Positions 7,356 to 26,455 of a stretch of DNA of 58,339 nt are shown one piece after another. The notes beneath the pieces are model-generated. The model worked only from the letters and a program-made list of their open reading frames with translations. It had not been told where the DNA came from and made no database searches. Position 1 is the first letter of the stretch. Each line of letters starts with the position of its first letter. This stretch comes from an uncultured Burkholderiaceae bacterium (GTDB lineage: Bacteria; Pseudomonadota; Gammaproteobacteria; Burkholderiales; Burkholderiaceae_E), in the NCBI GenBank assembly GCA_963976885.1, contig CAXBNM010000001.1:1-58339 (forward strand). The letters are read 5' to 3'. The position numbers and the translations under genes are program-made.

Positions 7356-7459
7356 GAGACGAGCTTTCACCGGTAGGGCAATCAGTTGGCAGGGCATTGA
7401 AACAATACCGCAATACCGTGAACTGAGTCGGCCGGCGAGCCCGTTCGGTTCAGATTGGC

Positions 7460-9265
7460 TCAGCCTTCGCCCACCACTTTGACCTCAAGGCCAAGGTGCA
7501 GATACTGCTGGCGCAGCAGATTCAGGAAATGATCGGCCGGGATGGGCTGGCTGCACAGAAAGCCCTGGTACACGTCGCACTTGGCCGTACGCAGAAACTC
7601 CAACTGCTCCGGTTCTTCGACGCCTTCGGCCGTGACTTCAAAGCCCAGACTGCGCGACATTGCCAGCACGGCCAGGACGATTGCACAGCTGTCGGTATCT
7701 TCCGGAATACCGGAAACGAAGGACTTGTCGATCTTCAATTCGTCCAGACGCATGCGCTTGAGGCTGCTCAGCGACGAATAGCCGGTGCCGAAATCATCGA
7801 TCGAGGTCCGCACGCCGAGCGTTTTCAGTCCTTCGATGGTCTGCGTGTTTTCCTCCGTATCGTCCATCATCATCGACTCGGTCACTTCGATGGTCAGCAT
7901 GCTCGGATGCAGGCCGGTCCGGTGCACGGTTTCCTGAACATCCAGCAGGAGACGGCCATCGGCAAAGTGCGGGGCGGAGATGTTGACCGCCACCGTGCAG
8001 TCCGTAATGCCTGCTTCGCGCCAGCGAACCGCTTCACGGCAGGCTTGTTCCAGAACCCATGTGCCGATGTCGGAGATCAGGCCGAGTTCTTCGGCCAGCG
8101 GAATGAAATCGACGGGCGAGACTCGGCCGTGTACTGGATGATTCCAGCGAATCAGGGCTTCGGCACCGCAGATAAGATCGCTTTCGATGTCTACCTTGGG
8201 TTGATAGTACAACTCAAACTGGCCCGAATTGAGCGCCTTGCGAATATCGCGCTCCATCTCGAGGCGCCGCAGGGCTTGTTCGTTCAGAACCGGCGAGAAG
8301 AATCCGTACTGATGCATCCCTTGCCGACGGGCGCCAGCGAGGGCGCCATGGGCGGCCTGCAACAAACCATCGGCACTGCTGGCGTCCATAGGCGCGGCAG
8401 CGATGCCGACCGCGGAACTGAGATGAAACTCAAGTCCCTCGTGCGGGATGGACTGAGCCAGCGCCCGATTGATGCGTCGGGCAATATCGGCGCCGTGATC
8501 GGTGCTGTCTGTGCCTTGCAAAATTACCGCAAACTCGTCGCCGCCAATGCGGGACAAGGTCAGGCGGAGCGCTTCATTAGTGCGCGGGTCGCTGGCTTTC
8601 AAACAAGCCTGAATGCGTCTGGCGGCAATCTGTACGACATGGTCGCCAACTCGCCGGCCGACAGTTTCATTGATCTTCTTGATGCCATTGATCTCGATTT
8701 GCAGCAAGGTGCAAGGCGAGTCCGGGCCCTTGGCGCGGCGAATGGCGGAGTCAAGCTGATTGTTGAACATCCGTCGGTTGGGCAGATTGGTCAAGCCGTC
8801 AAAGTAGGTAAGCCGGTCCTGGTGCGCCTTGAAGGCCAGTGTGTTGCGCAGCCGGAGGATCAGTTCGCTCGGGTCAACCGGCTTGGCCAGAAAGTCGGTA
8901 GCGCCCATTTCCAGAACCTTGAGCTTGGTCTGAGCGTCGCTGGCCGAAGTCATCACGATGACAGGCAGCATCCGGGTATCGGGAGCGGCCTTGACCGTGC
9001 GCAAAATTTCAAAACCGTCAACCCCAGGCATCATCAAGTCCAGCAGCAATACGTCTGGTCGTTTGGCGTGTACGGTGGCTACTGCCTGGCGCGGATCGTT
9101 CAGCGCGATGAAGTCGAGGTAGCCCGACTCTTCCAGGAACGCCCGTACCAGTTCGGTCAGGATGGGCTCGTCATCGACCATCATTACACGGGCGCTGGTG
9201 GCCAATGAAACTTCAATGGGGTCAATGCCTGCAAACTCGGTCATGGATACATCGGGTTGATTCAT
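7460..9265 (-). CDS. Response regulator with REC-GGDEF-EAL architecture (c-di-GMP turnover)
   Basis: REC domain (MMVDDEPIL...DVLLLDLMMPGVDG). GGDEF motif intact (RIGGDEFAVIL). EAL motifs intact (EALIRW, DDFGTGYSSL, EGVE, YQGF). Its ATG overlaps the upstream stop as ATGA (9262-9265). Confidence 0.92.
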   Translation of the reverse strand: MNQPDVSMTEFAGIDPIEVSLATSARVMMVDDEPILTELVRAFLEESGYLDFIALNDPRQAVATVHAKRPDVLLLDLMMPGVDGFEILRTVKAAPDTRMLPVIVMTSASDAQTKLKVLEMGATDFLAKPVDPSELILRLRNTLAFKAHQDRLTYFDGLTNLPNRRMFNNQLDSAIRRAKGPDSPCTLLQIEINGIKKINETVGRRVGDHVVQIAARRIQACLKASDPRTNEALRLTLSRIGGDEFAVILQGTDSTDHGADIARRINRALAQSIPHEGLEFHLSSAVGIAAAPMDASSADGLLQAAHGALAGARRQGMHQYGFFSPVLNEQALRRLEMERDIRKALNSGQFELYYQPKVDIESDLICGAEALIRWNHPVHGRVSPVDFIPLAEELGLISDIGTWVLEQACREAVRWREAGITDCTVAVNISAPHFADGRLLLDVQETVHRTGLHPSMLTIEVTESMMMDDTEENTQTIEGLKTLGVRTSIDDFGTGYSSLSSLKRMRLDELKIDKSFVSGIPEDTDSCAIVLAVLAMSRSLGFEVTAEGVEEPEQLEFLRTAKCDVYQGFLCSQPIPADHFLNLLRQQYLHLGLEVKVVGEG

Positions 9266-11850: not shown

Positions 11851-14800
11851 AGTGTGGCCCTGGGGGAATCGGACGCAAGGTCCGGCGCATCAGCAGGCGA
11901 GTCGTCCGCCGCTTGCTGGCGTGCCTGTTCAAGCATGGATTCAATGGACTCATCGTCGCCGGTGCCGCCTTCGGCAACCGGCATATTGCTCAGAACCGGC
12001 AACGGATCAATTGATCGCCATGCGGGCATCGTCGCCAGCACGCTGCTGAGCAGGGCGCCGCTGCGAATCAGCCAGAGTACATAGCCGATGGAAAGGGTTG
12101 AGCTGAGGGCAAACGACGAGGTAACGATCTGGCGATCAAATGACGTTTGCGCTTGGATCTCATCTTTGATGGATTGAAGCTGGCGACTGAAGTATTCGCT
12201 GGAAAAATCTACCTGCTCGATGCCGTAGCTGCGTTCGGTCTGGAGCTGATCGACGGGCAGATCAAAGCGTCGTTCACTCTCCTGATTATCGGACAGACCT
12301 TGTACGGCAGGCGGTATCTCGCGCCGGCCGGCCAGCAGCGCCGATTGGGCGTTGCGCTCGATCGGGCTCTGGCCGTCCGATGCCGAGTCTTCGACGAGCG
12401 CGGCCTGCGCCCGGCCACTGGCATTGTCGCTATCGCCGCCTGGTGTGTCGGCTCGTCCGTCGTTGTTGATCTCGTCGTCGGCATCGTCATCGCCGTCGGC
12501 ATCGTCGTTGTCCGTTGCTGAGTCATCGGCTACCTCATTGTCCGGTGCTTCGGCGGGTTCATCGGGAACAATGCTCGGTTGCAGGCTTTCGATGCCTACT
12601 TTGATAACGCCGCTGCGGCCGCCCTCGCTGTCTTCGATCTGGATTTCGAAGCTGTCATTGCTGCCAGTGGCTTTATCAGCCAGGTAGCTGACCTTGCCCT
12701 CGCTCAGTTGCTGCTGCGTGAACCGGTCACCCGTGTTGAGCTTGACGCCATCAAGAAGCAGGCTTCCCTGGCTTGGTGTGTTCAACACAACGAAGTGCAA
12801 CTCACTGGCATCGTCCTCGATGTCGGTTGCCGACAGCACGGCAGTGCTGAGAACCCGTTCGGTGCCGGGCTCGGCTGACGTCCACATGGATCCTGCCGGG
12901 CTTGGGCTGTCATTGACCGCAATGATTTCGATTGTGGTGCTGATCGTTACCGAGCGGGTCGGATCGTTCGGATCGATGAAGCTGGCTTGCGCGGCCCAGT
13001 TGCCGTTAACGTCCTGGTCGGGGCGGTAGTCGAGAGTCAGCAGGGCAGCGGCAATGTCGCTGACCGACCCACTCAAGCGCATGCTTTGATCGGCGACGCC
13101 GTCACCTTGAGTGAAGGTCAAGCCAGTGGTCTGTCTCAACGATAACGACCCGGACGACACCGCCAGGTTCAGCTCCAGCACGCTGGCGTTCAACGGGTCC
13201 GCGAAGTTCAGGCTTTGACCCCATGGGCTGGTCTGATCTTCCATGATCTGCCGGTTGCCCGACCATTGCGCGGTCAGGCCGTCGGGGTTGACTGCTACCC
13301 CGACGCGCAAAGACTGGGTGTCGGCTCGGACTCCGTCCGACGCGCTGACCAGGACGTGATAGATATTGTCGCCATCAGCATCCATTGGATTGTCCGCCGT
13401 TGGCAGGAAGCGAAAACTCAGAGCGCCGGAGGTGTTGTTGATGTTGAACGCCGCGGCATCTGTGCCTCCGGCGATCGTGTAGAACAGCGTCGGAGAGTCC
13501 GGGTCGTTTGCCCGTACCGTGGTCACAGCTGTGGTGCGGTCGGGCAGCGTGATACTGGCTGAGTCACCGCCGTTGTTGCTCGTGATCGTCGGCGAATAGT
13601 CGACTGTATTGATGACATTGAAAGTCAGGAGCGCGCCTGAGGTACTGAACAGGCCGGCGCTGTCGGCTACCTGGAAGCGAAAGCTTGCATAAGGTGAACC
13701 CACGCCATGCTCAACCGGGGTGAATACCAGCTCGCCGGCTGTCAGGCTGGCCTGGGAGATCTCCTGGCCGACAGCGACGCCTGTGCCGTTCAGGGACAGT
13801 GTGCCAAGGGTTGGCAGGGTATCAATACGTACGGCGCTGAGTGTGTCGTATGCATCCTGGTCGGCAAAGGCGAAATCTGCAACAGTCAACGCGGCAGAAG
13901 TTGATTCGTCGATGGTGCGCGTGTTGCCGTTGGAGGAGGGGGCCTCATTGACGTCGCTGACAGCAATGGTGAAACTGCGCTGGATTGTCGATCCATCGGA
14001 GGAACGCGCCAGTACATTGATTTGATGGGGCAGATCCGTCTCGAAGTCAAAGACAGCCGCATCGCTCACCGTGACCACACCGGTGTTTGCATCAATCGCG
14101 AACAGCGCGTCAGGGTTCGAATTGAGCTCGTAAGTAATGATGCGGCCGTTGTCTGTGTCAGTGGTCTGCACGGTAATGCCGACCGGGGTTCCTGCAACAG
14201 CATTCTCCGCGACGGCATCGGGCGTGGCGTCGCTGTCGATGATGGGATTCAGCCCTTCATTGACATTCGTCACCGCGACGTTGAAGGTTCGAGTGATGGT
14301 TGACCCGTCATTGGAAGTGGCACGCACGGTGATCTGATGCGATTCACTTGTTTCAAAATCGATGTTCGCGCCATTGCTGACAGTTACCACGCCGGTGTTG
14401 GCATCAATGCCAAACAGCGGACTGCTGTCGGGGTCGAGCGAGTAGGTGATGGTTCTACCCTGGTCGGTGTCGGTCGCACGAGCCGTAATGCCCGTGGCGG
14501 TGCCTGCGACTGAGTTCTCGGCGATGGAGTTGGCTGCGCCGTCGAGGTCCGCGATCGCCGAGAGGCCTTCATTGACATCGATGACATCGATCGAAAAGAT
14601 TCGAGTCGCCGTGGAGCCGTCGTCCGAACTTGCCCGAACGGTAATGAAGCGTTGTGCTGATGACTCGTAGTTGATGGTGGCGCCGCTATCAACGCTGACG
14701 ACGCCGGTATTGGCGTCAATGACGAACGCACTGTCGGAGCCCGGCTCGAGCGAGTATGTGATGGTGCGACCGCTATCAGTATCGGTCGCGTGAGCAGTAA

Positions 14801-17800
14801 TGCCTACCGTGGTGCCTGCCGCTGAATTCTCAAGCACCTGATTGTTCGCGTCGTCACTGTCCGTGTCGACGATCGCTGAGAGCGGCTCGTTGACATTGGT
14901 TACGTCGATGTCAAAAGTGCGTGTAACCGTGGAGCCATCGCTGGAAGTGGCTCGAATCTGAATCTGGTGTTGAGTGCCGTTTGGTGCCTCGTAGTTGATC
15001 TCGGCTCCGGTGGCCACCGAGACGACGCCCGTTGTCCCGTCAATTGCAAACAGGCCGCTGGGGTCGGACTCCATGGTGTAAGTTATGGACTGTCCGAGAT
15101 CGGCATCGCTCGTATGTGCTGTGATGCCAACCAGTGTTCCCTGGCTGGCATTCTCATTGACTGAGTTCGTGGCGCCATCGTCATCAATGATTGCCGATAA
15201 AGGCTCGTTGACATTATTGATCTGAACAGTGAAGTCGCGTTCGGAGTAAGAGCCGTCTGAAGAATCAGCTCGTATGCGTATCGTATGTTCTGTCGCGTTT
15301 TCGTAGTTGAAGCTTGCTCCGTCATTGACGGTCACTACGCCAACCGTGTCGTCCGCAATCTTGAACAGATTGCCAGGGTTGGAACTGATCGAATAGGTTA
15401 CTGTATCGCCGGCATCGGGGTCCGTGGCCGATGCTGTAATACCGACAGGCGTATTGGCGGCGGCGTCCTCTGAAATCGCGTCGACCCCTGCATTCGCATC
15501 AATGATCGCGGATATGTCGTCGTTAACGTTGGTCACGGAGATGGTGAACGTACGCTCGGTAAACGTGCCGTCGCTGGATGTGGCACGCACGACTATCATG
15601 TAGTCATCACCAGGCGTCCACGTGAAGCTTCCGGCCTGATTGACGGTCACGGTGCCGTCTGCGGGGTCGACAATCTCGAATCGATTGCCAGGATTACTGG
15701 TCAGGCTGTAGCTGATCGTGTCGCCATCGTCAGGATCGATCGCCAACGCGGAAATGCCAACCGATGTACCTCCGGTGGCCGTTTCAGGGATCAGATTGCT
15801 CGTGCCGTCAATGTCTGCAATTGCCGAAACGCTTTCATTGACATTGGCTATGCTGATCGTGAACGTCGCGGTCGTGAAGCTGCCGTCCGTTGATGTTGCC
15901 CGTACCTGGATCTGATGTTGCTGGGCTGCTTCAAAGTCAAGAGAAGCGGCCGCGACGACACTGACGACACCGGTAGATCCGTCAATGGCAAATCGGTTGC
16001 CTGCGTTGTCGTCGAGGGTATAAGTGATGGTTTCGCCTTCAGGATCCTGCGCCATCGCCGTGATCAATGCCAACGTCCCCGCAGGCGAGTTCTCTGCCAC
16101 TGTGTTCGGCGACGCGTCAGCGTCGCTGATCGGCCCCACAGATTCGTCGATATCGGTCACGCTGATCGTAAAGATTTTCGTTGTACTGCTGCCGTCCGAT
16201 GAGCGGGCTTCGACGGTCACATCATGAGTATCGGCGTCTTCGAAATTGATGGGTGTATTGCCACTGACGGTGATGATGCCGGTATTGGCATCGATGATGA
16301 ACCGATCCCCCGCATTGTCGATGAGAGAATAGGTGACGCTGTCACCGTCCTGATCAAGCGCTGCTGCCGTCACGCCGACAGTGGTTCCTGCTGCGGCGTT
16401 CTCGGCGATCCGGTTCACCGTAGCATTGTCGGCATCGCTGATTGCCGAGACCGGATCATTGGCATCGAGCACATTGATGGTGAAGACTCGATCACTGTAG
16501 TCGCTGGGCGACCCGGAAGACTGGGCGCGCACTTCGATGTCGTGCTGTTGGGCTGCTTCGTAGTCAATAGGCGTATTGCCGCTCACCGTCACGACACCGG
16601 TGGCGACATCGATGACGAAACGCCCTCCGGCGTCATCGAGCAGCGAGTATTCGACGGTCTCGCCGGCATCTTCGTCCTCAGCGTATGCCGTAATTCCTGT
16701 CAAAGTTCCTGCGCCGGCATTCTCGGTGACACTGTTCGGTTCGGTGATATCAGTGTCCGTGATTGCTGATACCGGATCATTCGCGTCGGTGACGGCGATG
16801 GTGAAGTCTTGTTGCGTGGAATCATCCGGGGACGTGGCCGCGACTGTTATCTGATAGCTGCCCACTCCTTCAAATTGAAGAGGCGTGTTGCCGGTATAGG
16901 TGACGACGCCGGTATTGGCGTCGACTGCAAAGCGGCCTCCCGCGTCATCGGTCAGCGAATAAGACACCGTTTCTTCGTCGCCATCGATTGCGTAGGCGGT
17001 AAGGCCGACTGCAGTGCCTGCGCTGGCGTTTTCGGCTATTGCGTTGGCGTCCGCTGTGTTGGCGTCGGTAACCGGCGAAAGTGGCTCAGGGACATTGCTG
17101 ATGCTGACGACGAAAAAGGCCTCGCTGAAACTGCCATCCGTTGAACTGGCGCGTATCTTGACCTGATGGGAGTCGTCGTTCTCGAAATCGAAGCTCGCCG
17201 TGTTGCTTACGGAAACCACGCCGCTACTGGCATCGATGACGAATCGGTTTCCAGGGTTGCTTATCAGTTGGTACGTAACGGTATCGTCGGGGTCAGGGTC
17301 GGTTGCCTGGGCGGTGATGCTGGTCTGCGTGCCGGCGGTGGCATTTTCGGGCAGTTTCGCGTCAGACGCGTTGCTGTCGGTTACCGCTCCAACCGTGCTG
17401 TCGTTATCCCGATTGGTCCATGGAATAACGACATCCGGCATCGCCTGATAATTGACGTCCGTACTGCCGGCAGTTGAAAAGGTGATGTTGTAAATAATGT
17501 CGCCGTCAATGATTCCGTCTTCGACCGGCGTAACAGAGAATGTTTGCCACGCGCTCCAGTTGCCCGAAGTGACGTTAAGCGTGGCCTGGCTCAGCGTACC
17601 TTCAGTTGGATCCGAGATCGTGGCGGTGATTGTGACGTCTGCGGTCGGCTGTGAGCTCAGTGCTACCCGAAAATCGACGCTGTTGCCTCCTTCGACAGTG
17701 AACTGACCACCAGGAAAATCAAAGTTGAGCGATACCGGCTCGAAGGCGGAGTTTGCCAGAAGCACACCTTGAGTGTCCGCATCGCTCTTGCCGCTGTAGA

Positions 17801-19622
17801 ACACTGTGCTGGTGGTGCCGTGAAGCACGATTTGCGGATTACTCTGTAAACGATGGGAGCTGACATTGATGCGTTGCGGATCGCTTATCGCGACGCCGGC
17901 AGCGTTGAAGTGGCGAACATAGACGTCGCTGTCGGACGTGAATGCTGGTATGGAATCCCAGGCAACGACGATGTTGCCACTGGCATCAAGCGCAATGCTC
18001 GGACTCGACTGATACTTGTCAAAGGATTGAAAATATTCGGTGTCTGATCCGATTTGATCCAGATTGGCGTCAAGTCTCTTGAAATACATGGCGTTGTCCA
18101 GAAAACCTTCCTGCCATGCCACGACGATCGCACCATTGTCGTTCATTGCTATTGCTGGACGTGCCAGAAAACCATGGCTGTGCACGTTGAGCTTGACTGT
18201 GTCTACCAGCCCGTTGCTGCCAATCTTCGCCAGTTCAAGATCGGGTGTTCCGGTGCCGGGGTCTTTGACGAACGCAATGACCGCCGTCTGGGTAGTGTTG
18301 TTGATGGCCACCACCGGAGTTTCATACTGTCGATTGTCGTTGGTCGACGCCAGCTGATCAGAGTTCAGCTCCTGATTGCCCTGGTCGTCAAAGGTCGCAT
18401 ACAGTATCTGGTCGTCGTCGCCGCCTTCTTCCTGCACCCACGTAATGATGAATCGTCCGTTATCGAACAGTGCGACTGCCGGTGTGCGCTGATCGTCCTT
18501 TGTTTCACGGCTGATGCGGAATTCGTACGGGTTCTCGTATACGGCGCCGCTCTTGCCAGCGCTCAGCGCGAGGCTTGGGCGGGCCATTGGTGTGCCATCT
18601 GCTGCGAAGCGCTGGGCATACAGGCCGTTGTTGTCGCCGTCCTGGTCTTCGGCCTCCCACACGACGATGAACTGTCCGCTGGCGTTCATGGCGACCACCG
18701 GGTTGGAGCGTTCCGTGCTGCCGCTTCGCGCTATTTCAGTGGCATTGCCGGTCGGCTGCCCATTGGTGTCGTACAGCCGGAAGTACACCTGATTGTTCTG
18801 ATCACTCTCCCAGACGACGACTACCGATTGGCCATTGGTGGCGATCTGATTGGCGCCGGTGGCTTCGCTGACATGTTGATTTCCTGCGGTACTCTGATTG
18901 ACTTGCTCGGTACGGGGGTTGTCGCCGAAGTTCAGGGTGCCGAGCCAGTTGTCGGTGGTCGCAGTGCTCAGGCCCGTAAAAGACTCGATGAGGCCGGTGC
19001 TGTCTTCCAGTTCCCAGTCGCCGCCCAGCGACTCATGGCCGGTGGTGTCGTTACTTGCCGCAACGTCGGCGCCGGTCAACTCGCTCAGCTCGTCGATCAG
19101 TGCCAGACCGGAGCCATCGGCGGTGAGGTCGCAGCCAAAGATCAGCAGATCGGCGTCGGTGCTCAGCAGCGGACGCCAGGAGGCAAATTGTTCGGCGAGT
19201 GCAGGCAGGGTGGTGTTTGACACCGATTGATTGCCCAACTCGAAACTGCCCGCCGCGCCATGGGTATAGATCTGTACGGATTGATATTGCTGATCGCTGC
19301 CAGTCAGGGCCTCGGTGACCGCCTGCAGGCCGTCGCTGTCTGCATCAAGCACCAGGTACTCGATCTGTACGCCGGCTTCAGCCTGGGCGGTGATGTCGGC
19401 AACGAGTGAATCCAGGTCAGGCAGGCGCTCATCGAAAACGGCCAGGGTCCAGGCATTGGCTTGCTGCTGACTTGCCGTGTTGGCGCTCTCTTGCGGTTCG
19501 GTGTGGGCGACGATGCTGGCATCTGCCGGCATCACATCAACCGGGCCGAGCAGCGCGGCGGCGTCGGCCGAATACAGGATGCGCTGGGCAACCTGTTCCG
19601 CAATGGGTGGGCGACCGCTCAA
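11847..19622 (-). CDS. Giant surface/adhesin-like protein: DUF4347, propeller-like repeats, Calx-beta-like domain, 11 cadherin-like repeats, acidic tract, C-terminal TM region
   Basis: Uninterrupted ORF 11847..19703 (2618 codons from a GTG). The preferred start is TTG at 19622: GGAG lies 8 nt upstream and the start sits 4 nt after the upstream stop. Alternative starts are GTG 19703 (77-nt overlap) and ATG 19532. The DUF4347-like segment reads LAVFDERLPDLDSLV...IYTHGAAGSFELG...LLIFGCDL...GGDWELE. The roughly 102-aa repeats follow the pattern VNEPLSAI.D.D...EN..AGT.VGITA.A.D.D.G.T.TYSL...F.ID..TGVVTV. Confidence 0.93.
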   Translation of the reverse strand: MSGRPPIAEQVAQRILYSADAAALLGPVDVMPADASIVAHTEPQESANTASQQQANAWTLAVFDERLPDLDSLVADITAQAEAGVQIEYLVLDADSDGLQAVTEALTGSDQQYQSVQIYTHGAAGSFELGNQSVSNTTLPALAEQFASWRPLLSTDADLLIFGCDLTADGSGLALIDELSELTGADVAASNDTTGHESLGGDWELEDSTGLIESFTGLSTATTDNWLGTLNFGDNPRTEQVNQSTAGNQHVSEATGANQIATNGQSVVVVWESDQNNQVYFRLYDTNGQPTGNATEIARSGSTERSNPVVAMNASGQFIVVWEAEDQDGDNNGLYAQRFAADGTPMARPSLALSAGKSGAVYENPYEFRISRETKDDQRTPAVALFDNGRFIITWVQEEGGDDDQILYATFDDQGNQELNSDQLASTNDNRQYETPVVAINNTTQTAVIAFVKDPGTGTPDLELAKIGSNGLVDTVKLNVHSHGFLARPAIAMNDNGAIVVAWQEGFLDNAMYFKRLDANLDQIGSDTEYFQSFDKYQSSPSIALDASGNIVVAWDSIPAFTSDSDVYVRHFNAAGVAISDPQRINVSSHRLQSNPQIVLHGTTSTVFYSGKSDADTQGVLLANSAFEPVSLNFDFPGGQFTVEGGNSVDFRVALSSQPTADVTITATISDPTEGTLSQATLNVTSGNWSAWQTFSVTPVEDGIIDGDIIYNITFSTAGSTDVNYQAMPDVVIPWTNRDNDSTVGAVTDSNASDAKLPENATAGTQTSITAQATDPDPDDTVTYQLISNPGNRFVIDASSGVVSVSNTASFDFENDDSHQVKIRASSTDGSFSEAFFVVSISNVPEPLSPVTDANTADANAIAENASAGTAVGLTAYAIDGDEETVSYSLTDDAGGRFAVDANTGVVTYTGNTPLQFEGVGSYQITVAATSPDDSTQQDFTIAVTDANDPVSAITDTDITEPNSVTENAGAGTLTGITAYAEDEDAGETVEYSLLDDAGGRFVIDVATGVVTVSGNTPIDYEAAQQHDIEVRAQSSGSPSDYSDRVFTINVLDANDPVSAISDADNATVNRIAENAAAGTTVGVTAAALDQDGDSVTYSLIDNAGDRFIIDANTGIITVSGNTPINFEDADTHDVTVEARSSDGSSTTKIFTISVTDIDESVGPISDADASPNTVAENSPAGTLALITAMAQDPEGETITYTLDDNAGNRFAIDGSTGVVSVVAAASLDFEAAQQHQIQVRATSTDGSFTTATFTISIANVNESVSAIADIDGTSNLIPETATGGTSVGISALAIDPDDGDTISYSLTSNPGNRFEIVDPADGTVTVNQAGSFTWTPGDDYMIVVRATSSDGTFTERTFTISVTNVNDDISAIIDANAGVDAISEDAAANTPVGITASATDPDAGDTVTYSISSNPGNLFKIADDTVGVVTVNDGASFNYENATEHTIRIRADSSDGSYSERDFTVQINNVNEPLSAIIDDDGATNSVNENASQGTLVGITAHTSDADLGQSITYTMESDPSGLFAIDGTTGVVSVATGAEINYEAPNGTQHQIQIRATSSDGSTVTRTFDIDVTNVNEPLSAIVDTDSDDANNQVLENSAAGTTVGITAHATDTDSGRTITYSLEPGSDSAFVIDANTGVVSVDSGATINYESSAQRFITVRASSDDGSTATRIFSIDVIDVNEGLSAIADLDGAANSIAENSVAGTATGITARATDTDQGRTITYSLDPDSSPLFGIDANTGVVTVSNGANIDFETSESHQITVRATSNDGSTITRTFNVAVTNVNEGLNPIIDSDATPDAVAENAVAGTPVGITVQTTDTDNGRIITYELNSNPDALFAIDANTGVVTVSDAAVFDFETDLPHQINVLARSSDGSTIQRSFTIAVSDVNEAPSSNGNTRTIDESTSAALTVADFAFADQDAYDTLSAVRIDTLPTLGTLSLNGTGVAVGQEISQASLTAGELVFTPVEHGVGSPYASFRFQVADSAGLFSTSGALLTFNVINTVDYSPTITSNNGGDSASITLPDRTTAVTTVRANDPDSPTLFYTIAGGTDAAAFNINNTSGALSFRFLPTADNPMDADGDNIYHVLVSASDGVRADTQSLRVGVAVNPDGLTAQWSGNRQIMEDQTSPWGQSLNFADPLNASVLELNLAVSSGSLSLRQTTGLTFTQGDGVADQSMRLSGSVSDIAAALLTLDYRPDQDVNGNWAAQASFIDPNDPTRSVTISTTIEIIAVNDSPSPAGSMWTSAEPGTERVLSTAVLSATDIEDDASELHFVVLNTPSQGSLLLDGVKLNTGDRFTQQQLSEGKVSYLADKATGSNDSFEIQIEDSEGGRSGVIKVGIESLQPSIVPDEPAEAPDNEVADDSATDNDDADGDDDADDEINNDGRADTPGGDSDNASGRAQAALVEDSASDGQSPIERNAQSALLAGRREIPPAVQGLSDNQESERRFDLPVDQLQTERSYGIEQVDFSSEYFSRQLQSIKDEIQAQTSFDRQIVTSSFALSSTLSIGYVLWLIRSGALLSSVLATMPAWRSIDPLPVLSNMPVAEGGTGDDESIESMLEQARQQAADDSPADAPDLASDSPRATL
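13945..17395 (-). repeat. Array of 11 in-frame tandem cadherin-like repeat units (about 306 bp each) inside the giant gene
   Basis: Eleven successive protein units are counted from GAVTDSNASDAKLPENATAGT (about 17395) to AVSDVNEAP (about 13945). The units are clearly diverged at the DNA level. Confidence 0.85.
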
Positions 19623-19626
19623 GTTT

Positions 19627-20583
19627 TCAGCTCCGTGCTGCCGGCGCTGGCCCGGTATCAAAACTGACCCGGCATCGGGCGCCTGCCGGTACCGTGAGCG
19701 CACTGTTGTCGACCAGCATCTGCGCCCGGAAGGTCGAGCTTGCCGGATCGATGAAGGCGTCGACCTGATCGACGATTGCGGTCAATTCCATCGGCTCGGC
19801 GGTCTCGGTATTGACCGTGCCGATCATGCCGGCGGCGATGCGCCCGTAGTAACGCGCGGGGGCCACCACTTCGACGCGCAGCATATCAAGGCGGATCACC
19901 CGTGCAATGGTGCGGCCATCGGCACGCTCGCCGGCGCTGACCATCTGCTCGGCCACGACGCCGTCGATCGGACTGCGCACGTAACGCTGATCCAGTTGCT
20001 GGGCGGCAACCTGATGCTCGCGGTCGGCAATGCGGTGGCGTTCACGGGCCTGCTCGATGCGATAGGTGGCGACGTCGAGCTCGCCCTCGGCCAGTTCCAG
20101 TTCGAGTTGAGCGCCGTAACTCAGTTCATTGAGTGACTTCATGCGCGCGACCTTGCGTTGGGCCATCTGATGGGTAGCCCGGGCCGCGGCGATTTCGGCA
20201 CGGGCGGCTGCGCGTGCCTCGGCTGCGAGCAGCAAGGCCTGTTCAACCGAGTTGTCGAGCACGGCCAGGATCTGACCGCGTCTGACCCGATCGCCACGCT
20301 TGACGCGCACCTCGGCAAGAATGCCGGGGGCACCGGCGCCGATATCGGCAGCGGTATGGGGCGTAATCAGACAGCCGAACCCATCCTCGGAATAGTTGCC
20401 CGATTTGCCGTGGGCCGGATTGCCGAGCTGTTTGCGGCTGGAGGCATTGGCCGGACGATTCGGCATTTCCATCGCACGCGGTGTGTCCGGGCGTGTCTGC
20501 GCGCTCGATAATCCTGTGCTCACAGCAAGCAGGCCGGAGGTGAGGGCGACGGCGATCAGGCCCGTGTGTCTGATACGGTTCAT
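19627..20583 (-). CDS. Periplasmic membrane-fusion / adaptor protein (HlyD/RND-MFP family)
   Basis: Signal peptide MNRIRHTGLIAVALTSGLLAVSTGLSSAQ. Lipoyl-like hairpin GILAEVRVKRGDRVRRGQILAVLD, a coiled-coil stretch, then VRSPIDGVVAE. It starts 13 nt after the SecA-like stop. Confidence 0.88.
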   Translation of the reverse strand: MNRIRHTGLIAVALTSGLLAVSTGLSSAQTRPDTPRAMEMPNRPANASSRKQLGNPAHGKSGNYSEDGFGCLITPHTAADIGAGAPGILAEVRVKRGDRVRRGQILAVLDNSVEQALLLAAEARAAARAEIAAARATHQMAQRKVARMKSLNELSYGAQLELELAEGELDVATYRIEQARERHRIADREHQVAAQQLDQRYVRSPIDGVVAEQMVSAGERADGRTIARVIRLDMLRVEVVAPARYYGRIAAGMIGTVNTETAEPMELTAIVDQVDAFIDPASSTFRAQMLVDNSALTVPAGARCRVSFDTGPAPAARS

Positions 20584-20596
20584 TTCTCGACTTCCA

Positions 20597-22543
20597 TTAT
20601 TGACGGCTCAGTGTAGAAAAGTGCAATTCACGCGAGTTATTGAGATCTGCCCGGAGGCGTTTGACTCTTTGTGAGCGGTCATGCCACTGCCAGAGTTGTT
20701 GTCTGAGATGCACAATGACAGCCGCCAGCGGTCGGTAACGAATGACCGGATGGAGCATCCGTAGCAGTCGACTGCTTGTGTCAGCGCGGTAATTTGCTTG
20801 TTCGTGTTGATTCAGAACACACCAGTGCTCTGCGCTGCCTGGTTCACCCTGGCGGGCCGCACGGCCCGTCATTTGCCGGTCGATTCGAGCACTGCGATTC
20901 GATTGCAGGTTCAGCACGTGCAGCCCACCGGCCTGGAGGGCCACCGAATCGGGTTTGATGTCGGTACCGCGACCGGCGATCTGGGTTGAAATGGTGATAC
21001 GGCCCGCTTTGCCGGCCTGACTTATCTGTTCGGCTTCGGTGTCGGCATTGGCGGCGTCGAGCAGATTCGCCTCAATGCCGGCGGAATTGAAGGCCAGTGC
21101 CAATGCACGGGCTTGAGCAACGTTATCGGTGCCAATCAGTACCGGCCGGCCGTGGGCGGCAAGCGTTCGGGCGCGTTGGAGAACGGCGACGCAGAGTTGT
21201 TGCTGGTTTGAAAACAGGCGATGACCGAAGTGACGCCGTTGCGAGGGCTGGTGTGGTGCTACTCGACTGACGCGCAGGCCATAGGATTTTCGGATTTCGC
21301 CGCGAACCTCATGCAAGGTCCCCGAAAGACCACACAAGTGGTGGTAGCGGGCAAAAAAGCGTGGATAACTCAGACCGCTGCGAGCGCTGGATTCGCCGGG
21401 AGGCGGCAGGGATTCCTTGGCGCAGATCAGGGCTTGCAACAGGCCGGGCAAAACCCGGCCTTCGGCAACGCGGCCGGTAGCGGCGTCGATCAAGGCGATC
21501 GATTCATCACGCACCAGGTAATCAACATCGCGGCGCAAGACGTACAAGGCGACCAGCGCATGGCTGATGACCTCGGTACGGTAGTCGGCATGAAACCAGA
21601 GCTGATCGAAACCCGGGTGCAGGGCGGCCAGGCGTTTCATTGCCTGCGGCCTGATGGTGGCACTGCGCCGTTCGGGGTGACAGTCAAAGTCCTGGCGCGG
21701 CGTCAGTTGCCCGGCCAGGGCCAGCGCCAGGGCAGGGTCGACATCAACCAGGGCCTTGGCGACCGGTTCGGCAAGGACCAGCGGAATCGACGCTTCGTCG
21801 ATCAGCAGACAATCGGCTTCATCGACAATGGCAACGCACAAACCGCGCAGCAAATGCGACGGCGTGCCAGGCGGATCGGCGGCTTCCTTGCTGTCCTGAT
21901 CGCGCAGGTAATCAAAGGCGCAGGTTTTGGCGGTCGCATAACACACGGCCTGCTGCCAGGCCTGGCGTCGTTGCGGCGGCGTCATGGTGGCGGTGGCGGC
22001 GGCGCAGTTCAGCCCCAGTGCTGCAAAAAAGTCCTGATGGTCGGCGGCATCACGGCTGGCCAGATAGTCATTGGCGGTGAGTACATGGACCGGTGCTCCG
22101 GTCATGGCCAGCACCGCCGCGGCCAGCGCCGCGGCCAGGGTCTTGCCCTCACCGGTAGCCAACTCGACCAATTGCTGGTTCAGGAGCAGGGCTGCGGTGG
22201 TGAACTGATTCGGATGAGGGCTGAGTCCGCGGGTGCGCGCATAGTGCTGGGCAACACAGGCCAGCGCAAGCGCACAGCTTGCTTCGTTCAAACCGAGACG
22301 GGCCAGCGCCCAGCGCACACGGCTGCTATTGATCGGGGCGCCGCCGGCCAGTTGCAAAGCCCGCCGGGCGACCCGGTGCGGGTTGCGCAGCGGTTGGCGG
22401 CGAGCGCGTACCGGATAGTCGGTTTCGCGGGCTTGCGGGTAGACACCCCACACGGGGCCGGGCACGGCCGGGCGGCAGGGGCGTTGGCGACGCGATGACG
22501 CTTGGGCCGGCGGGCGGAGCCGGGGGGCGGTCAGTGTGCTCAT
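20597..22543 (-). CDS. SecA-like DEAD-motor ATPase lacking the SecA C-terminal scaffold/wing/CTL domains
   Basis: LVELATGEGKTLAAALAAAVLAMTGAPVHVLTANDYLASRDA matches the SecA NBD1 Walker A region. VAIVDEADCLLIDEASIPLV is the Walker B / DEAD motif. DYLVRDESIALIDAATGRV is PPXD-like. LSGTLHE...PVLIGTDNV...GRGTDIKP...GGLHVLN...RIDRQMTGRAARQGEPG is NBD2. The protein ends about 50 aa after NBD2. ATGA overlap with the upstream gene (22540-22543). Confidence 0.88.
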   Translation of the reverse strand: MSTLTAPRLRPPAQASSRRQRPCRPAVPGPVWGVYPQARETDYPVRARRQPLRNPHRVARRALQLAGGAPINSSRVRWALARLGLNEASCALALACVAQHYARTRGLSPHPNQFTTAALLLNQQLVELATGEGKTLAAALAAAVLAMTGAPVHVLTANDYLASRDAADHQDFFAALGLNCAAATATMTPPQRRQAWQQAVCYATAKTCAFDYLRDQDSKEAADPPGTPSHLLRGLCVAIVDEADCLLIDEASIPLVLAEPVAKALVDVDPALALALAGQLTPRQDFDCHPERRSATIRPQAMKRLAALHPGFDQLWFHADYRTEVISHALVALYVLRRDVDYLVRDESIALIDAATGRVAEGRVLPGLLQALICAKESLPPPGESSARSGLSYPRFFARYHHLCGLSGTLHEVRGEIRKSYGLRVSRVAPHQPSQRRHFGHRLFSNQQQLCVAVLQRARTLAAHGRPVLIGTDNVAQARALALAFNSAGIEANLLDAANADTEAEQISQAGKAGRITISTQIAGRGTDIKPDSVALQAGGLHVLNLQSNRSARIDRQMTGRAARQGEPGSAEHWCVLNQHEQANYRADTSSRLLRMLHPVIRYRPLAAVIVHLRQQLWQWHDRSQRVKRLRADLNNSRELHFSTLSRQ

Positions 22544-24735
22544 GACCAGCCCGGCGCCAGGCGCGTGTTGAATGTATGGCCGAGACTGCGCGCCGCTTGC
22601 AGCAGCGCACTGGTATAGCCGAAATCCAGCCGGACCCAGACTCGCTGACCCGGTACCAGTGAATTACCTGCTTGCGCGGGCAGCTTGAGATCGAGCTGAA
22701 AGGTGGGCGCCGCCGGGCGCAAGGCTGCGTCGGTGGTGCGGTCCAGTTCCACCGAGCCGCCAGCGCTGGCGGCAAACGCCTCGGCGGGCAGGGTGCTCAG
22801 TGCGGCGGGGGTAAAGCCACTGACCTCGGCCCGAACCGGCTTGGTGTTGTCGCGCGTGGCAAGCCGCGCCCAGATCGCGGGCTGGCCAGTCTGCCACTGC
22901 GGTAACAAGCGTGCCGCCTGGCTTGCATCGAGCATCGCCCGCAACTGCACCTGGCCTGGCGGCGGCGCTATGCCCAGAAGTTCACCGGCGGCCACGAAGC
23001 GGCCCGGCAAGTCGCTCGCGGGCGCAATGAGTCGGAACCGATCTGCGGTAGCCGGCTCGCGCACGCGGACCGTGAGTTGCTCGCGGCGCTCGCGCAGTTG
23101 GGTCAGGGTACGTTCGGCCTGGCGCAGCGATTCCGGATTGCTCCGCTGCGCGGCCGGCTCGGCCATGTTGCTGATCCATTGGCTGCGCGCTGCGTTAACG
23201 ACACCGCTCTGAACGCCGATGCGCGCATCAAGGAGCGGGTCGTGCATTTGCACGAGTGCTTGATTGTCGGTCTGAGCAGAGGCCGCGTCGCCGTGTACCG
23301 CGACAATATAGCCGGGTTGGCGGGCGCGTATGCGGGCGTCATCGGGCAGCCAGACGACCGCTTGTGCCAGGGAACGATCGGGCAGTGGCAGCAGCGCTGC
23401 GCCGAGCAGGGCACCGGCCAGCAATCCGGCGCGCAGGCCGAGTGTGGCGTTGCGGCCCGGCGAGCCGGTCAGTTGCAGTGCGCCGCGCAGCAGGCGCACC
23501 ACAGGCATGACGAACAGCATCAATATCGCCATCGCCATCAGTGCCAGCCCGGCAGCCCGAAAGTGGCTGCCGATCCAAAGCGCGAAGGTCGTGAGAATCG
23601 CCACGCGATAACACCAGGCAAGTGGCGCGTAGGCCAGCTGCCAGTATCGTTCAGTGGCATCGCAGGCCGGCATTGGCTGCGACACGCCGGTCAGCAGACG
23701 TAACCATCCCTGATGCCAGCGTTGATTGCTGCGTTCGCTCAGATTGGCCAGGCCGGTCAGATCGGTGAGGACATAGTAGCCATCGAAGCGAATGAGCGGA
23801 TTGCCGTTGAGAAAAACCGTCATTACGCTGCCGATCAGTGCTACCGCCAGCATCAGTTCGCGCCAGAGGCCGTCGGCCAGCAAGGTCCAGGCAATCAACG
23901 CCAGACTGGCCAGCAGCAGTTCGACGACGATGCCGGCGGCACTGACCGCGGCACGTTGTCGACCCGAAGTCAGCAGGTTGGCGTCACTGGCATCGACATA
24001 GGGGGCGGGCATCAGCATCAGCAGCGCGACGCCAAGTTCGCGGGTAGTGCCACCGAAATGGCGCAAAGTGATGCCGTGCGCCAATTCATGAATGATCTTG
24101 ACGAAGGGGTAGGCACACCAGAGCAGCAACCAGAATGACGGCCGGGCTGTCGCTTCGGAGATGGCCGGCGCCAGGGTGTCGAATTGCTGCAGCGCGCAGA
24201 GCAATGCCAGAGCGACGATCAGCGCTGCGCTGGCCAGTGCCCACGGACCCATCAGGTGACCGCCAAGGGCGTGCAAGCGTTCGATCAGTGCCGAGGGGTC
24301 GGCCAGGCGCCAGCGCGGTGCCAGCAGGTTGTGTTGCTGGCGCCGCGCCGCGGCGGTGTCTTCATCCCATTGTTGCTGGCGTTGGTCGAGATCGGGCCAG
24401 CTTTCGCAGTGCAGATAGCCTTGTCTTACCAGGCGGGCCAGAATCGGCATCAGTGCTTGCTGAGCCGGTAATTCGTCGGGCTGATGGCTGGCAACCCATT
24501 GCCAGATTTCATTGAGCGTGCGTTGCCCATCGCAACGCGCCACGATCGCCCAGGCCGCCTGATTCAAACGCAGCTGACCGCGTTGCTCGGGCCGGCTGAG
24601 CATGATCCAATGGGCGCCGCGCATGCGCTGCGCGGTAATCCGCACCTGGCGGACCAGGGCAGGTTTCAGGCTGCTCAGCCGGTACCATTGCGGGCTGTAC
24701 AGGCTGGTGGGGGCATCGGAGCGGGTCATCACCAT
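22540..24735 (-). CDS. Fusion protein: PqqD/RRE-like N-domain, polytopic M50-type zinc metalloprotease core, HlyD-like C-terminal region
   Basis: N-terminal segment LRLNQAAWAIVARCDGQRTLNEIWQWV...ILARLVRQGYL follows the PqqD pattern. Multiple TM helices carry HELAHG (HExxH) and NGNPLIRFDGYY (the M50 NxxPxxxLDG-type motif). The C-terminal third resembles an MFP barrel. Candidate starts are ATG 24735, ATG 24729 and GTG 24753; all overlap the upstream stop at 24729-24731. Confidence 0.85.
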   Translation of the reverse strand: MVMTRSDAPTSLYSPQWYRLSSLKPALVRQVRITAQRMRGAHWIMLSRPEQRGQLRLNQAAWAIVARCDGQRTLNEIWQWVASHQPDELPAQQALMPILARLVRQGYLHCESWPDLDQRQQQWDEDTAAARRQQHNLLAPRWRLADPSALIERLHALGGHLMGPWALASAALIVALALLCALQQFDTLAPAISEATARPSFWLLLWCAYPFVKIIHELAHGITLRHFGGTTRELGVALLMLMPAPYVDASDANLLTSGRQRAAVSAAGIVVELLLASLALIAWTLLADGLWRELMLAVALIGSVMTVFLNGNPLIRFDGYYVLTDLTGLANLSERSNQRWHQGWLRLLTGVSQPMPACDATERYWQLAYAPLAWCYRVAILTTFALWIGSHFRAAGLALMAMAILMLFVMPVVRLLRGALQLTGSPGRNATLGLRAGLLAGALLGAALLPLPDRSLAQAVVWLPDDARIRARQPGYIVAVHGDAASAQTDNQALVQMHDPLLDARIGVQSGVVNAARSQWISNMAEPAAQRSNPESLRQAERTLTQLRERREQLTVRVREPATADRFRLIAPASDLPGRFVAAGELLGIAPPPGQVQLRAMLDASQAARLLPQWQTGQPAIWARLATRDNTKPVRAEVSGFTPAALSTLPAEAFAASAGGSVELDRTTDAALRPAAPTFQLDLKLPAQAGNSLVPGQRVWVRLDFGYTSALLQAARSLGHTFNTRLAPGWS

Positions 24736-26105
24736 GGTTGCCAGCGCCACCACTGACGCGCCAGCGCATCGAGCAGATCACCGGCCCAGCGGGTAAGCAG
24801 ATTCTGGCGTGGACCGGGCAGGTGAACCGTACCGCGCTGGCCGGACTTGAGCGCATGCGTCGAACCGATCAGACGCGCATGAACCGGGACGACGTTGCGG
24901 CCATCAATGACACTGGCCACAGGCGCTACCCGGTTGACCTCGATATCGATCCGGTCCCAGGGCAGGGCGCTGGGCGCAAGTTGGCCACGCTGCCCGATGT
25001 GTACCTGCGCAATGTCGTTCTCATCGACTTCGATAAGTACCCGCAAGGAATCGTCCGGGGCCAGCGTGAACAATGCCTCGCCGCGCGTGACCGGCATGTT
25101 CAGGCGTTCGATCAGATCACCGTGCAGGACGGGGGCCGCCATCGGGGCCCGAATATCGGCCTGAGCGATCTGCATGTCCAGCAAGGCAATACGGGCGTTG
25201 GCCTGGTCGATCTGAGCACGCGCAGTGGCCATGGTCGATCGGTCGTTGCTCACCATGGCGGCGTTCACCGCAACCTGATGCTGAGCCAGGTCGGCCTGCA
25301 ACTGATTGCGCTCGAGTTCAAGTTCATCGGTACGCAAAGTCGCCAGCAGCTGGCCGGCTTGCACGATATCGCCGGGTCGGACCTGAACTGATTCGAGAAA
25401 GCCGTCGACCGGTGCGGTGATTTCACGTTCGATGGCGCCTTCCAGATGCGCCTGACTGCTGATGGGTTGCTCGAACGGAATCAGCAAACCCACGGCGACG
25501 CCAATCGCACCGGCCAGCAACCAGCGACGGCGTCGGCGCGCTGCCGGTCGGGTGTTGCGAGCCTGGCGCAGCAGGCGAGCCCATAGCAGGCGATGAACAG
25601 GCTCATCGGTTTGTTCGTTCAGGCGCAGCAGTCGCGAACACGGTGCCAGCAAGTGCTCGAGAAAGCTGATCAGCAAACCCAGACGTTGCCGGCTCTGAGC
25701 GCTGGCGGGCGGTAAAGTCGCGGCGGGCATTTCCACACAGAGCGCGCCGACCGCCTGGTTATCGAGCGCCATCGGCACGCTGAGTACGCTGCCGCCACTC
25801 TGGTGGGCCAGGGCGCGTTGCGCGGCGGTGATGGCGCCACTTGGATGCTGACCGAGGCTGTGCACACTGCATTGCGCGAACATGGCTTCATCGGCGGCGG
25901 CCAGCAGGCTGTTGCGCAGCTCGGTGTTCAGTGCGGCAACTGGCGCGTTCGAGACGGCAACCAGTTCAACTTGCTGGCTTTGCGCGTGCTGCCACGCCAG
26001 ACTCACCCGACTGGCGCCAACCGCCTGTGCCACGCCGGCACACAGCGCCGCGGCGGCGGCGGTAAAACCATCGCCTTCGCTGACCTGCTGATGAATCTGC
26101 AGCAT
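24729..26105 (-). CDS. GAF-domain-containing membrane-fusion protein (HlyD family)
   Basis: Cytoplasmic GAF-like N-terminus (GASRVSLAW...VELVAVSN...LSVPMALDNQAVGALCVEM). Polybasic RRRRRW followed by TM helix LLAGAIGVAVGLLIPF. HlyD hairpin LESVQVRPGDIVQAGQLLATL, coiled coil, then IRAPMAAPV. The ATG at 26105 is preferred. The ORF extends to a TTG at 26231, but that extension is Arg/Pro/Ala-rich. Confidence 0.82.
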   Translation of the reverse strand: MLQIHQQVSEGDGFTAAAAALCAGVAQAVGASRVSLAWQHAQSQQVELVAVSNAPVAALNTELRNSLLAAADEAMFAQCSVHSLGQHPSGAITAAQRALAHQSGGSVLSVPMALDNQAVGALCVEMPAATLPPASAQSRQRLGLLISFLEHLLAPCSRLLRLNEQTDEPVHRLLWARLLRQARNTRPAARRRRRWLLAGAIGVAVGLLIPFEQPISSQAHLEGAIEREITAPVDGFLESVQVRPGDIVQAGQLLATLRTDELELERNQLQADLAQHQVAVNAAMVSNDRSTMATARAQIDQANARIALLDMQIAQADIRAPMAAPVLHGDLIERLNMPVTRGEALFTLAPDDSLRVLIEVDENDIAQVHIGQRGQLAPSALPWDRIDIEVNRVAPVASVIDGRNVVPVHARLIGSTHALKSGQRGTVHLPGPRQNLLTRWAGDLLDALARQWWRWQPW

Positions 26106-26455
26106 CCGGGCCGCGGTCAGGCCCGATGTTTCGTCCGGGTTACTGGTCGTGCCGCCGTTGCGCACAGGCGCGGCTCCGCCGGCGCGGGGCGCAGGCGATC
26201 GCAGCGGTCGGGAACGCAGAGCAACAGACAAGATTTTGGCTCAAATGACACTTGGAATGCCTAGTTTGGGCGGTGCGGCGCGGCTGCGGCGAGACTGGCC
26301 GGTGAGTGTCCGATAGGTGGTCACCGGACAGGTACCAGCGGCTCAGAATGCGATGTGAATGCAACCGGTATCCTTCGGGGATTCCGATTTTGCTCGGGCC
26401 GGCACAGGCCGCGGGCTTTCTACCCCTTTGATTGCACGTTAGCAAGGAGACAGCA

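Follow-up and report, generated by a model that had tools for sequence, protein, structure and literature searches.

The window analysed here, the whole of a stretch of 58,339 nucleotides from an uncultured Burkholderiaceae bacterium (contig CAXBNM010000001.1 of assembly GCA_963976885.1), carries on its minus strand a gene whose product joins three parts: a cytoplasmic PqqD/RRE domain (RRE, the recognition element of RiPPs, peptides synthesized by the ribosome and modified after translation), a seven-transmembrane (7-TM) M50/site-2-protease (S2P) core, and a periplasmic adaptor protein (PAP) domain of the HlyD family. This fusion gene, the subject of the present study, is the second in a four-gene cassette in the order PAP-A, fusion, SecA-like ATPase and PAP-B, next to which lies a gene for a giant repeat protein. 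To our knowledge, the export of proteins of thousands of residues across two membranes is understood only for type I systems driven by ATP-binding cassette (ABC) transporters and for a few others, and full-text searches of the literature turned up no description of the cassette.

The RRE-M50-adaptor fusion protein

The fusion gene and the parts of its product are listed below, each with the evidence in brackets (ORF, open reading frame; HMM, hidden Markov model; AF2, AlphaFold2 model); the cellular sides are predicted ones.

22540..24735, minus strand: RRE-M50-PAP fusion gene, 731 aa (ORF, homologue alignment, AF2)
24406..24681, minus strand: PqqD/RRE-like winged-helix domain, cytoplasmic, residues 19-110 (HMM, profile, AF2, Foldseek)
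23386..24258, minus strand: M50/site-2-protease core with 7 TM segments, residues 160-450 (HMM, alignment, AF2, Foldseek, hydropathy)
24076-24090, minus strand: HELAH motif, residues 216-220 (alignment)
23986-24009, minus strand: PAPYVDAS motif (alignment)
23779-23808, minus strand: NGNPLIRFDG motif, residues 310-319 (alignment)
22543..23385, minus strand: PAP domain, of the membrane fusion protein (MFP) type, periplasmic, residues 451-731, with lipoyl, alpha-hairpin and beta-barrel parts (AF2, profile, Foldseek)

The ORF covers 22540..24753 on the minus strand with GTG 24753 as its farthest start codon; the ATG at 24735, which agrees with the N-termini of the homologues, gives 731 residues plus a stop and the N-terminus MVMTRSDAPTSLYSPQWYR. 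A protein database search with the fusion returned 624 matches and a scan of a genome collection at least 545 relatives, so that the architecture cannot be put down to chance. Nearly all of the database matches listed are 705-760 aa long, and the homologues listed or fetched share the same length and architecture under inconsistent source names ('putative peptide zinc metalloprotease', 'PqqD family peptide modification chaperone' and 'efflux RND transporter periplasmic adaptor subunit'). The family alignment consists of 40 fusion homologues of 30-48% identity, and the AF2 model built on it has a mean confidence (pLDDT) of 88.7. The gene is confirmed as real, and so in full is the three-domain observation of a preliminary description made from the letters of this DNA: the strings quoted there (LNQAAWAIVARCDGQRTLNEIWQWV, LARLVRQGYL, HELAHG and NGNPLIRFDGYY) were all found, and the HMM, profile and structure tests upheld each of its domain assignments.

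For the N-terminal domain, which that description had likened to PqqD and RRE proteins, searches with the single sequence of the fusion gave E 1e-3 for Pfam PqqD and E 1e-6 for NCBIfam TIGR03859 PqqD, both under the cut-off, and the 40-sequence family profile searched against PDB sequences found the PqqD structure 3g2b (E 3e-6, positions 19-103). In the AF2 model, strands at 32-38, 41-47 and 54-57 are followed by helices at 59-65, 74-84 and 92-104 with a pLDDT of about 90, and this strand-strand-strand-helix-helix-helix order over residues 32-104 is the RRE topology. Foldseek with the model of residues 1-450 matched the lasso-peptide RRE TbiB1 with its bound leader (5v1u_B, probability 0.95, TM-score 0.64). 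With a three-stranded antiparallel sheet, three helices and similarity to PqqD, the domain belongs to the RRE fold. RRE domains take up RiPP leaders by strand addition, and the RRE of the fusion may bind a leader in the same way, the candidate ligand being taken from comparative genomics as described below.

In the middle part, HExxH and NxxPxxxxDG lie in separate TM helices of a polytopic core, the arrangement of the M50/S2P family, and residues H216, E217, H220, P243, P245, V247, D248, A249, N310, N312, P313 and D318 are invariant in the 40 homologues. The invariance of the full catalytic set, of NxxP and of the PAPYVDAS strand argues for selection on catalysis, and the ligands of the putative zinc-dependent protease are conserved. 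The top Foldseek match of the 1-450 model is the S2P of M. jannaschii (3b4r, probability 1.0, TM-score 0.47). Among the sequence families, NCBIfam daptide_HExxH matches residues 33-427 with E 1e-44 (153 bits under a cut-off of 300), NCBIfam YydH/LiaK gives E 4e-10 (39.7 bits under a cut-off of 225), and Pfam Peptidase_M50 (PF02163) gives E 2.6e-3 (17.6 under a cut-off of 27.2). Hydropathy together with the positive-inside rule gives seven TM segments in N-in/C-out arrangement, the predicted cytoplasmic segments holding 20, 4, 5 and 2 lysines and arginines versus 1, 1 and 1 in the periplasmic loops. This predicted topology puts the RRE and both catalytic motifs on the cytoplasmic side, the motifs where TM2 and TM4 reach the cytoplasm, and the adaptor domain in the periplasm.

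The last part of about 300 residues had been described as MFP-like, and residues 451-731 indeed match adaptors by both structure and profile. Foldseek with the full AF2 model returned periplasmic adaptors only, TMexC with E 5e-11 and then MexA, AcrA and MacA, with E-values to 1e-8 over about 280-300 columns, and the family profile against PDB sequences found MexA/MacA with E 2e-7. The helices of the alpha-hairpin are modelled at 500-522 and 527-552; a lipoyl part, an alpha-hairpin and a beta-barrel following a membrane anchor make this tail a member of the PAP/HlyD family.

A conserved cassette beside giant proteins

The other cassette genes and the giant gene with its parts are the following.

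24729..26231, minus strand: PAP-A, HlyD-family adaptor, 500 aa, with an N-terminal extension of ~250 aa (Pfam, NCBIfam, homologue contexts)
20597..22543, minus strand: SecA-like ATPase, 648 aa, consisting of nucleotide-binding domain 1, preprotein-binding domain and nucleotide-binding domain 2 only (Pfam, NCBIfam, SecA alignment)
19627..20583, minus strand: PAP-B, adaptor of the HlyD/resistance-nodulation-division (RND) type, 318 aa (Pfam, NCBIfam)
11847..19622, minus strand: giant DUF4347/cadherin-repeat protein, ~2591 aa from TTG 19622, the proposed substrate (ORF, domain search)
19542..19622, minus strand: N-terminal leader (M)SGRPPIAEQVAQRILYSADAAALLGP with a degenerate LEPR-XLL-type motif, proposed RRE ligand and M50 substrate (alignment)
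18933..19442, minus strand: DUF4347 domain of the giant (domain search)
11931..12125, minus strand: conserved C-terminal module of the giant with a TM helix, SIGYVLWLIRSGALLSSVLATMPAWRSIDPLPVL and an acidic DDESIESML (alignment, hydropathy)

The start of the fusion gene overlaps the stop of PAP-A and its stop overlaps the start of the SecA-like gene; gene ends in the whole cassette overlap or nearly abut, which suggests translational coupling. On the 5' side of PAP-A only about 200 bp, a divergent promoter region, remain before a divergent short-chain dehydrogenase/reductase gene, and there is no space for a precursor gene, in agreement with the earlier remark that no precursor ORF lies upstream. 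A scan of the operon for promoters and terminators gave counts no higher than in shuffled sequence.

The SecA-like ATPase has intact Walker A, DEAD and arginine-finger motifs. It aligns to SecA residues ~48-569 only, and it therefore lacks the scaffold with the two-helix finger, the wing and the C-terminal domains; motor and preprotein clamp are kept, whereas the parts that dock to SecY are missing. Its closest sequence match is mycobacterial SecA2 (4uaq, E 5e-75; TIGR04221, E 1e-106); with this partial architecture and scores under every SecA/SecA2 NCBIfam cut-off (at best 358 versus 725), we do not assign it to the SecA/SecA2 family itself.

To view the cassette beyond the window, we collected the loci of five homologue contexts, which were inspected first and each have the same cassette, together with the best 80 of at least 545 relatives; removal of duplicates left 83 loci, referred to below by numbers such as L001. 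The neighbourhood counts rest on our own ORF calls and on BLAST thresholds with the window proteins, and at most 10 kb of flank was taken per locus, so that most upstream giants are without their N-terminus in these data. The order PAP-A, fusion, SecA-like, PAP-B recurs across the 83 loci, which come from beta-, gamma-, alpha- and 'delta'-proteobacteria, Myxococcota, Nitrospira, Methylomirabilia and one Flavobacteriales metagenome-assembled genome (MAG). Cultured carriers are Zoogloea dura, Ramlibacter alkalitolerans, Piscinibacter sakaiensis 201-F6, Uliginosibacterium flavum, a Pseudomonas isolate and Neptuniibacter caesariensis, and MAGs of Accumulibacter and Zoogloea have the cassette as well. 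Of the 83 loci, 76 contain the SecA-like gene; among the seven without it, four lie on truncated contigs. An ABC transporter is absent from the cassette in all loci. TolC-like OEP genes (PF02321), encoding outer-membrane factors (OMFs), stand inside two clusters: one at L026:15020-16441 (E 1e-44) in Nitrospira, where it directly follows PAP-B, and one at L092:7488-9227 (E 2e-28). These two genes lend support to an envelope-spanning assembly.

What adjoins the cassette is most often a giant. Of the 44 loci that have 3 kb or more on each side, 33 carry, immediately next to the cassette and on its strand, an ORF of 1200 aa or longer (22 downstream, 12 upstream), and several of the other 11 show fragmented DUF4347 genes or long ORFs on the opposite strand. 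The preliminary description had proposed looking for small ORFs around homologous clusters; no precursor-like small ORF recurs there, the clusters having giants instead, and no modification enzyme recurs beside the cassette. The one small gene that does recur encodes a DUF3467 protein of 105-165 aa (PF11950, E down to 3e-21), directly 5' of PAP-A in 13 loci (L026:7629-7970, L033:7692-8024, L065:7712-8035 and 10 more), which mostly have their giant upstream or not adjacent. A sequence comparison of DUF3467 with the PDB gave no structural relative, and no literature on the protein was found. Other recurring small-ORF 'families' were rejected, since they mirror real genes on the opposite strand or in another frame. 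In Labrenzia alba the cassette is followed by a radical-SAM gene and two genes that have no Pfam match (L033:16732-17742); they occur only there and are probably unrelated.

The preliminary description had also pointed to a stretch before DUF4347, '..AEQVAQRILYSADAAALLGP..', as a candidate leader, and this stretch aligns with a conserved motif of the giants. In the alignment, downstream giants begin with a basic stretch and P-h-h-E-x-h-E-P-R-I-L-Y-S-A-D, followed by a variable linker and DUF4347; the residues just after the motif vary among giants, and inspection of the sequences shows no hydrophobic signal peptide at the giant N-terminus. The ELEPRILYSAD tag is the NCBIfam LEPR-XLL motif (NF012209; about 24 residues, cut-off 17 bits), which scores above the cut-off in all five cassette-adjacent giants tested (17.9-27.2 bits). 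The window leader IAEQVAQRILYSADAAALLGP is a degenerate copy of it, and the candidate RRE-binding leader peptide of the window giant is MSGRPPIAEQVAQRILYSADAAALLGP. NCBIfam gave nothing relevant for the N- and C-terminus of the window giant. A regular expression for the leader matched 33 ORFs within their first 90 residues, and each of these ORFs is a cassette-adjacent giant; the other 764,859 residues of all ORFs gave two matches. Of 120 DUF4347 homologues, 74 have the motif, and the cyanobacterial members are without it.

The start of the window giant bears on the position of this leader. The mechanical ORF start is GTG 19703, which implies a 77-nt overlap with PAP-B; TTG 19622 is probably the true start, since GGAG stands 8 nt upstream, the PAP-B stop lies just before, and the resulting N-terminus, MSGRPPIAEQVAQRILYSAD..., parallels that of the closest homologue. 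The motif then occupies residues 8-27, versus 35-54 with the GTG start. At the other end, the DUF4347 giants that are complete or sampled at the C-terminus share a TM helix, PAWRxIDPLPIL and an acidic tail of the DDESLESML type; this module is a probable inner-membrane anchor and possibly a second recognition element.

Among the giants upstream of the cassette, which we call type 2, the only complete one, in Nitrospira L026, is of a different family and also has a LEPR-type N-terminus, ...RRRARRTYRQKPSSPRASHFMMESLEPRLLLSA (...ESLEPRLLLSA). A protein search seeded with the type-2 fragment of Neptuniibacter returned fragments only. Many type-2 giants end in a metzincin-like 'MDLLSVxxHELGHxxGLEH' (L018, L025, L033, L056, L066, L067 and L085), which would be a zinc-protease domain on the cargo itself.

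Beyond the giant, the window continues on the same strand with three further genes.

9262-11850, minus strand: hybrid histidine kinase (Pfam)
7460-9265, minus strand: response-regulator-GGDEF-EAL protein (Pfam)
4287-7397, minus strand: WD40-repeat protein with a C-terminal caspase (Peptidase_C14, EACC1-associated type), 1036 aa (domain search)

The first two products are probable regulators linked to cyclic di-GMP (c-di-GMP). Kinase-like genes are next to the cassette in 18 loci, and in many homologues the N-terminal extension of PAP-A is a cytoplasmic GAF domain; the GAF domain, taken with the kinase and GGDEF-EAL genes nearby, hints at control by cyclic nucleotides or c-di-GMP. The WD40-caspase gene is syntenic in the closest relative (L001:19991-22199).

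Possible roles of the cassette

We hold it to be somewhat probable that the fusion protein is the inner-membrane hub of a dedicated machine for the export and processing of giant surface proteins, in which binding, cleavage and export are all read from sequence, predicted structure and gene neighbourhood. The RRE would capture the N-terminal tag of the giant by strand addition, and the SecA-like motor would feed the unfolded chain, N-terminus first, into an assembly of the M50 TM domains and the TM helices of the adaptors. The M50 site would clip the tag at the cytoplasmic face, and the three adaptor types would bridge the periplasm as a tunnel leading to an outer-membrane channel of the TolC type, whose gene two relatives have in the cluster and the host of the window presumably elsewhere in its genome. 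The C-terminal TM module of the giant would then act as a stop-transfer anchor so that the adhesin stays tethered, and the kinase and GGDEF-EAL genes next door would probably couple expression or activity to c-di-GMP signalling. Precedents that support this logic are the daptide peptidase MpaP, EpeP and the truncated SecA domains of giant proteins, all described below.

Several observations weigh against this scheme. The inner-membrane route is its weakest step, because we know of no S2P-type core that serves as a protein-conducting channel. The SecA-like motor is not universal, being truly missing in L023, L041 and L069 and in a Nitrospirales variant, and the window's own cluster has no OMF gene. 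The window leader gives no match to NF012209 at E<=1, though it aligns column for column with the copies that score, and the leader status of the upstream giants rests on L026, the one complete type-2 giant. L001, which at 49% identity is the closest relative, keeps the cassette, with no giant at L001:15133-15468 between PAP-B and the kinase gene, and L006 also has a cassette without an adjoining giant; the cargo-free cassette of L001, together with the fragmented SecA-like or DUF4347 genes found elsewhere (L016, L029 and L009), suggests cargo loss or pseudogenisation. The DUF3467 protein could be a chaperone for the SecA-like motor, at a guess a SecB-like one, or a different small cargo.

A reverse test started from six DUF4347 proteins and looked at their genomic context. 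In favour of the scheme, the independently chosen P0194 (L088), LEPR-positive with a leader of proteobacterial type, has the cassette directly upstream; P0175 (L093), proteobacterial, LEPR-positive and from the same metagenome sample, has none within 10 kb. There is no cassette near the LEPR-positive proteins of Lentisphaerae (L089) and Planctomycetota (L090), both of the Planctomycetes-Verrucomicrobia-Chlamydiae (PVC) group, nor near the LEPR-negative Microcoleus protein (L091). The Nitrospirales protein (L092), with a leader of the ALEPRILFDG type, adjoins genes for OEP, HlyD, GAF-HlyD and an M50-PAP fusion without SecA, and this cluster is flanked by two DUF4347 genes with such N-termini. 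Pairing of cassette and giant in cis is thus not obligatory. In its broader form the unit therefore consists of an OMF, two adaptors and the fusion of M50 with an adaptor, with the SecA-like ATPase added in a large subfamily that includes the window, and the substrates can be encoded in cis or, presumably, in trans.

The conserved C-terminal module brings in another use of the protease, in which M50 would carry out regulated intramembrane proteolysis on the C-terminal TM anchor of the giant or on a different membrane protein, an anti-sigma factor for instance, while the N-terminal tag is read by another component, perhaps the SecA-like clamp. TM helices are what classical S2Ps cut, the acidic cytoplasmic tail of the module in DUF4347 giants could bind the RRE, and the preprotein-binding domain of SecA is present. 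We nevertheless regard this as unlikely: the module was not detected by BLAST in type-2 giants, whereas a LEPR-type N-terminus is found both in DUF4347 giants and in the one complete type-2 giant, and the nearest characterised relatives of the fusion are N-terminal leader peptidases. Moreover, the S2P family prefers N-in/C-out segments, and an anchor left by N-first export would be oriented in the opposite way.

It is also conceivable that the M50 core is a non-proteolytic membrane platform or gate, the leader being bound and never removed, so that it might serve, for instance, to plug the path or retain the giant. The sequence does not define a cleavage site, the residues after the motif are variable, and adhesins of type I secretion systems (T1SS) such as LapA have an N-terminal retention module that stays uncleaved. 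The invariance of H216, E217, H220, D318, NxxP and PAPYVDAS in homologues of 30-48% identity makes this quite unlikely.

The kinship of the ATPase to mycobacterial SecA2 leads to a two-step route, in which the SecA-like protein would hand the giant to the housekeeping SecYEG, as mycobacterial SecA2 does, and the M50-PAP and PAP proteins would act only from periplasm to surface or in quality control. Accessory SecA2 systems do export large adhesins in Gram-positive bacteria. We consider this route very unlikely here, as the ATPase is without the helical scaffold with its two-helix finger and the wing that canonical SecA uses, the giant N-terminus has no hydrophobic signal peptide, and the genes of ATPase and fusion are translationally coupled and inherited together in 76 of 83 loci.

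That the real cargo is a small ribosomal peptide, matured and exported by the fusion in the manner of EpeP/YydH or of the daptide peptidase, with the giant merely a neighbour, is most improbable: the best family matches are indeed RiPP leader peptidases, RRE domains are typical of RiPP pathways and DUF3467 offers a small ORF 5' of some cassettes, but the scores are far under the cut-offs (153 vs 300 and 40 vs 225 bits), neither the window nor the other 70 loci have a conserved small ORF, modification enzymes do not recur, a short peptide would hardly be expected to need a polypeptide-translocation motor with a preprotein clamp, and the conserved, position-specific leader sits on the giants.

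Returning to the export and processing machine, a bolder proposal, which we regard as a real possibility though somewhat short of probable, is that the cassette represents a new and widespread type of one-step secretion system of diderm bacteria, in which the RRE-peptidase-adaptor and a truncated SecA replace the ABC transporter of T1SS, giants are exported N-terminus first and LEPR-XLL/ELEPRILYSAD is the secretion signal. It is the SecA-like ATPase and the two extra adaptors, of which the preliminary description made no use, that turn a story of a protease into one of an export machine. On this proposal the orphan LEPR-XLL tag of giant proteins would be linked to a specific conserved machine, and leader recognition by RREs, seen as a device of natural-product pathways, may serve protein sorting as well. 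The cassette also offers a concrete and genetically tractable setting for truncated SecA motors, and it may be relevant to floc and biofilm formers such as Accumulibacter and Zoogloea, where giant adhesins matter.

Relation to known systems

Among the known systems, the daptide peptidase family MpaP/DapP (NF041824) is the closest. MpaP is an RRE-S2P peptidase that removes a leader with an ELExMEAP motif; it shares the RRE-then-M50 order, the match spans nearly the whole profile, and in both cases the leader motif is N-terminal, acidic and hydrophobic (ELExMEAP versus ELEPRILYSAD of the giants). MpaP has, however, no periplasmic adaptor domain, and its short-peptide substrates come with decarboxylase, aminotransferase and methyltransferase genes, none of which is beside the cassette, whose partners are instead the SecA-like ATPase, two adaptors and the giants. 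Assignment to NF041824 itself was rejected on its 153 versus 300 bits and on the lack of daptide enzymes or precursors nearby.

The family of EpeP, YydH and LiaK (NF058609) provides a likeness in its intramembrane HExxH protease acting on a ribosomal peptide, and for EpeP, an M50 protease, both cleavage and export of its peptide have been suggested. Their clusters differ in having a radical-SAM epimerase and a small precursor and in lacking an RRE-PAP fusion. This family was likewise rejected (39.7 versus 225 bits), neither epimerase nor precursor being found among the neighbours.

A further comparison is with the T1SS adhesin systems, LapA/LapBCE and SiiE/SiiCDF, which also combine a giant repeat adhesin, HlyD-type adaptors and adjacent c-di-GMP-linked regulators; the TolC-type channel of these systems is implied for the cassette and encoded in L026 and L092. 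The cassette differs in its energy source, a SecA-like ATPase, in having three paralogous adaptors, of which one forms a fusion with a protease, and in the cargo motif, which is N-terminal whereas the secretion signal of T1SS is C-terminal. A classical T1SS was rejected, with the ABC transporter absent from the cassette and an OMF in the cluster only in those two loci.

With regard to the motor, truncated SecA domains without scaffold and wing are known inside giant proteins and have been proposed to drive the export of these giants (bioRxiv 10.1101/2023.11.21.568195). These embedded domains and the accessory SecA2 systems resemble the present ATPase as divergent SecA motors tied to the export of very large proteins, and the embedded form, like ours, keeps the DEAD motor and the preprotein-binding domain and misses scaffold and wing. 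The difference is that the motor here is a stand-alone protein of 648 aa in an operon with adaptors and protease, and that the SecY2 and Asp genes of SecA2 systems are absent. As for the cargo, the cassette-adjacent giants score as LEPR-XLL (NF012209) proteins and the window copy aligns with them without scoring; we found no partner machinery described for this motif. Taken together, in its working the cassette most resembles a tripartite exporter to which a leader peptidase dependent on an RRE has been added.

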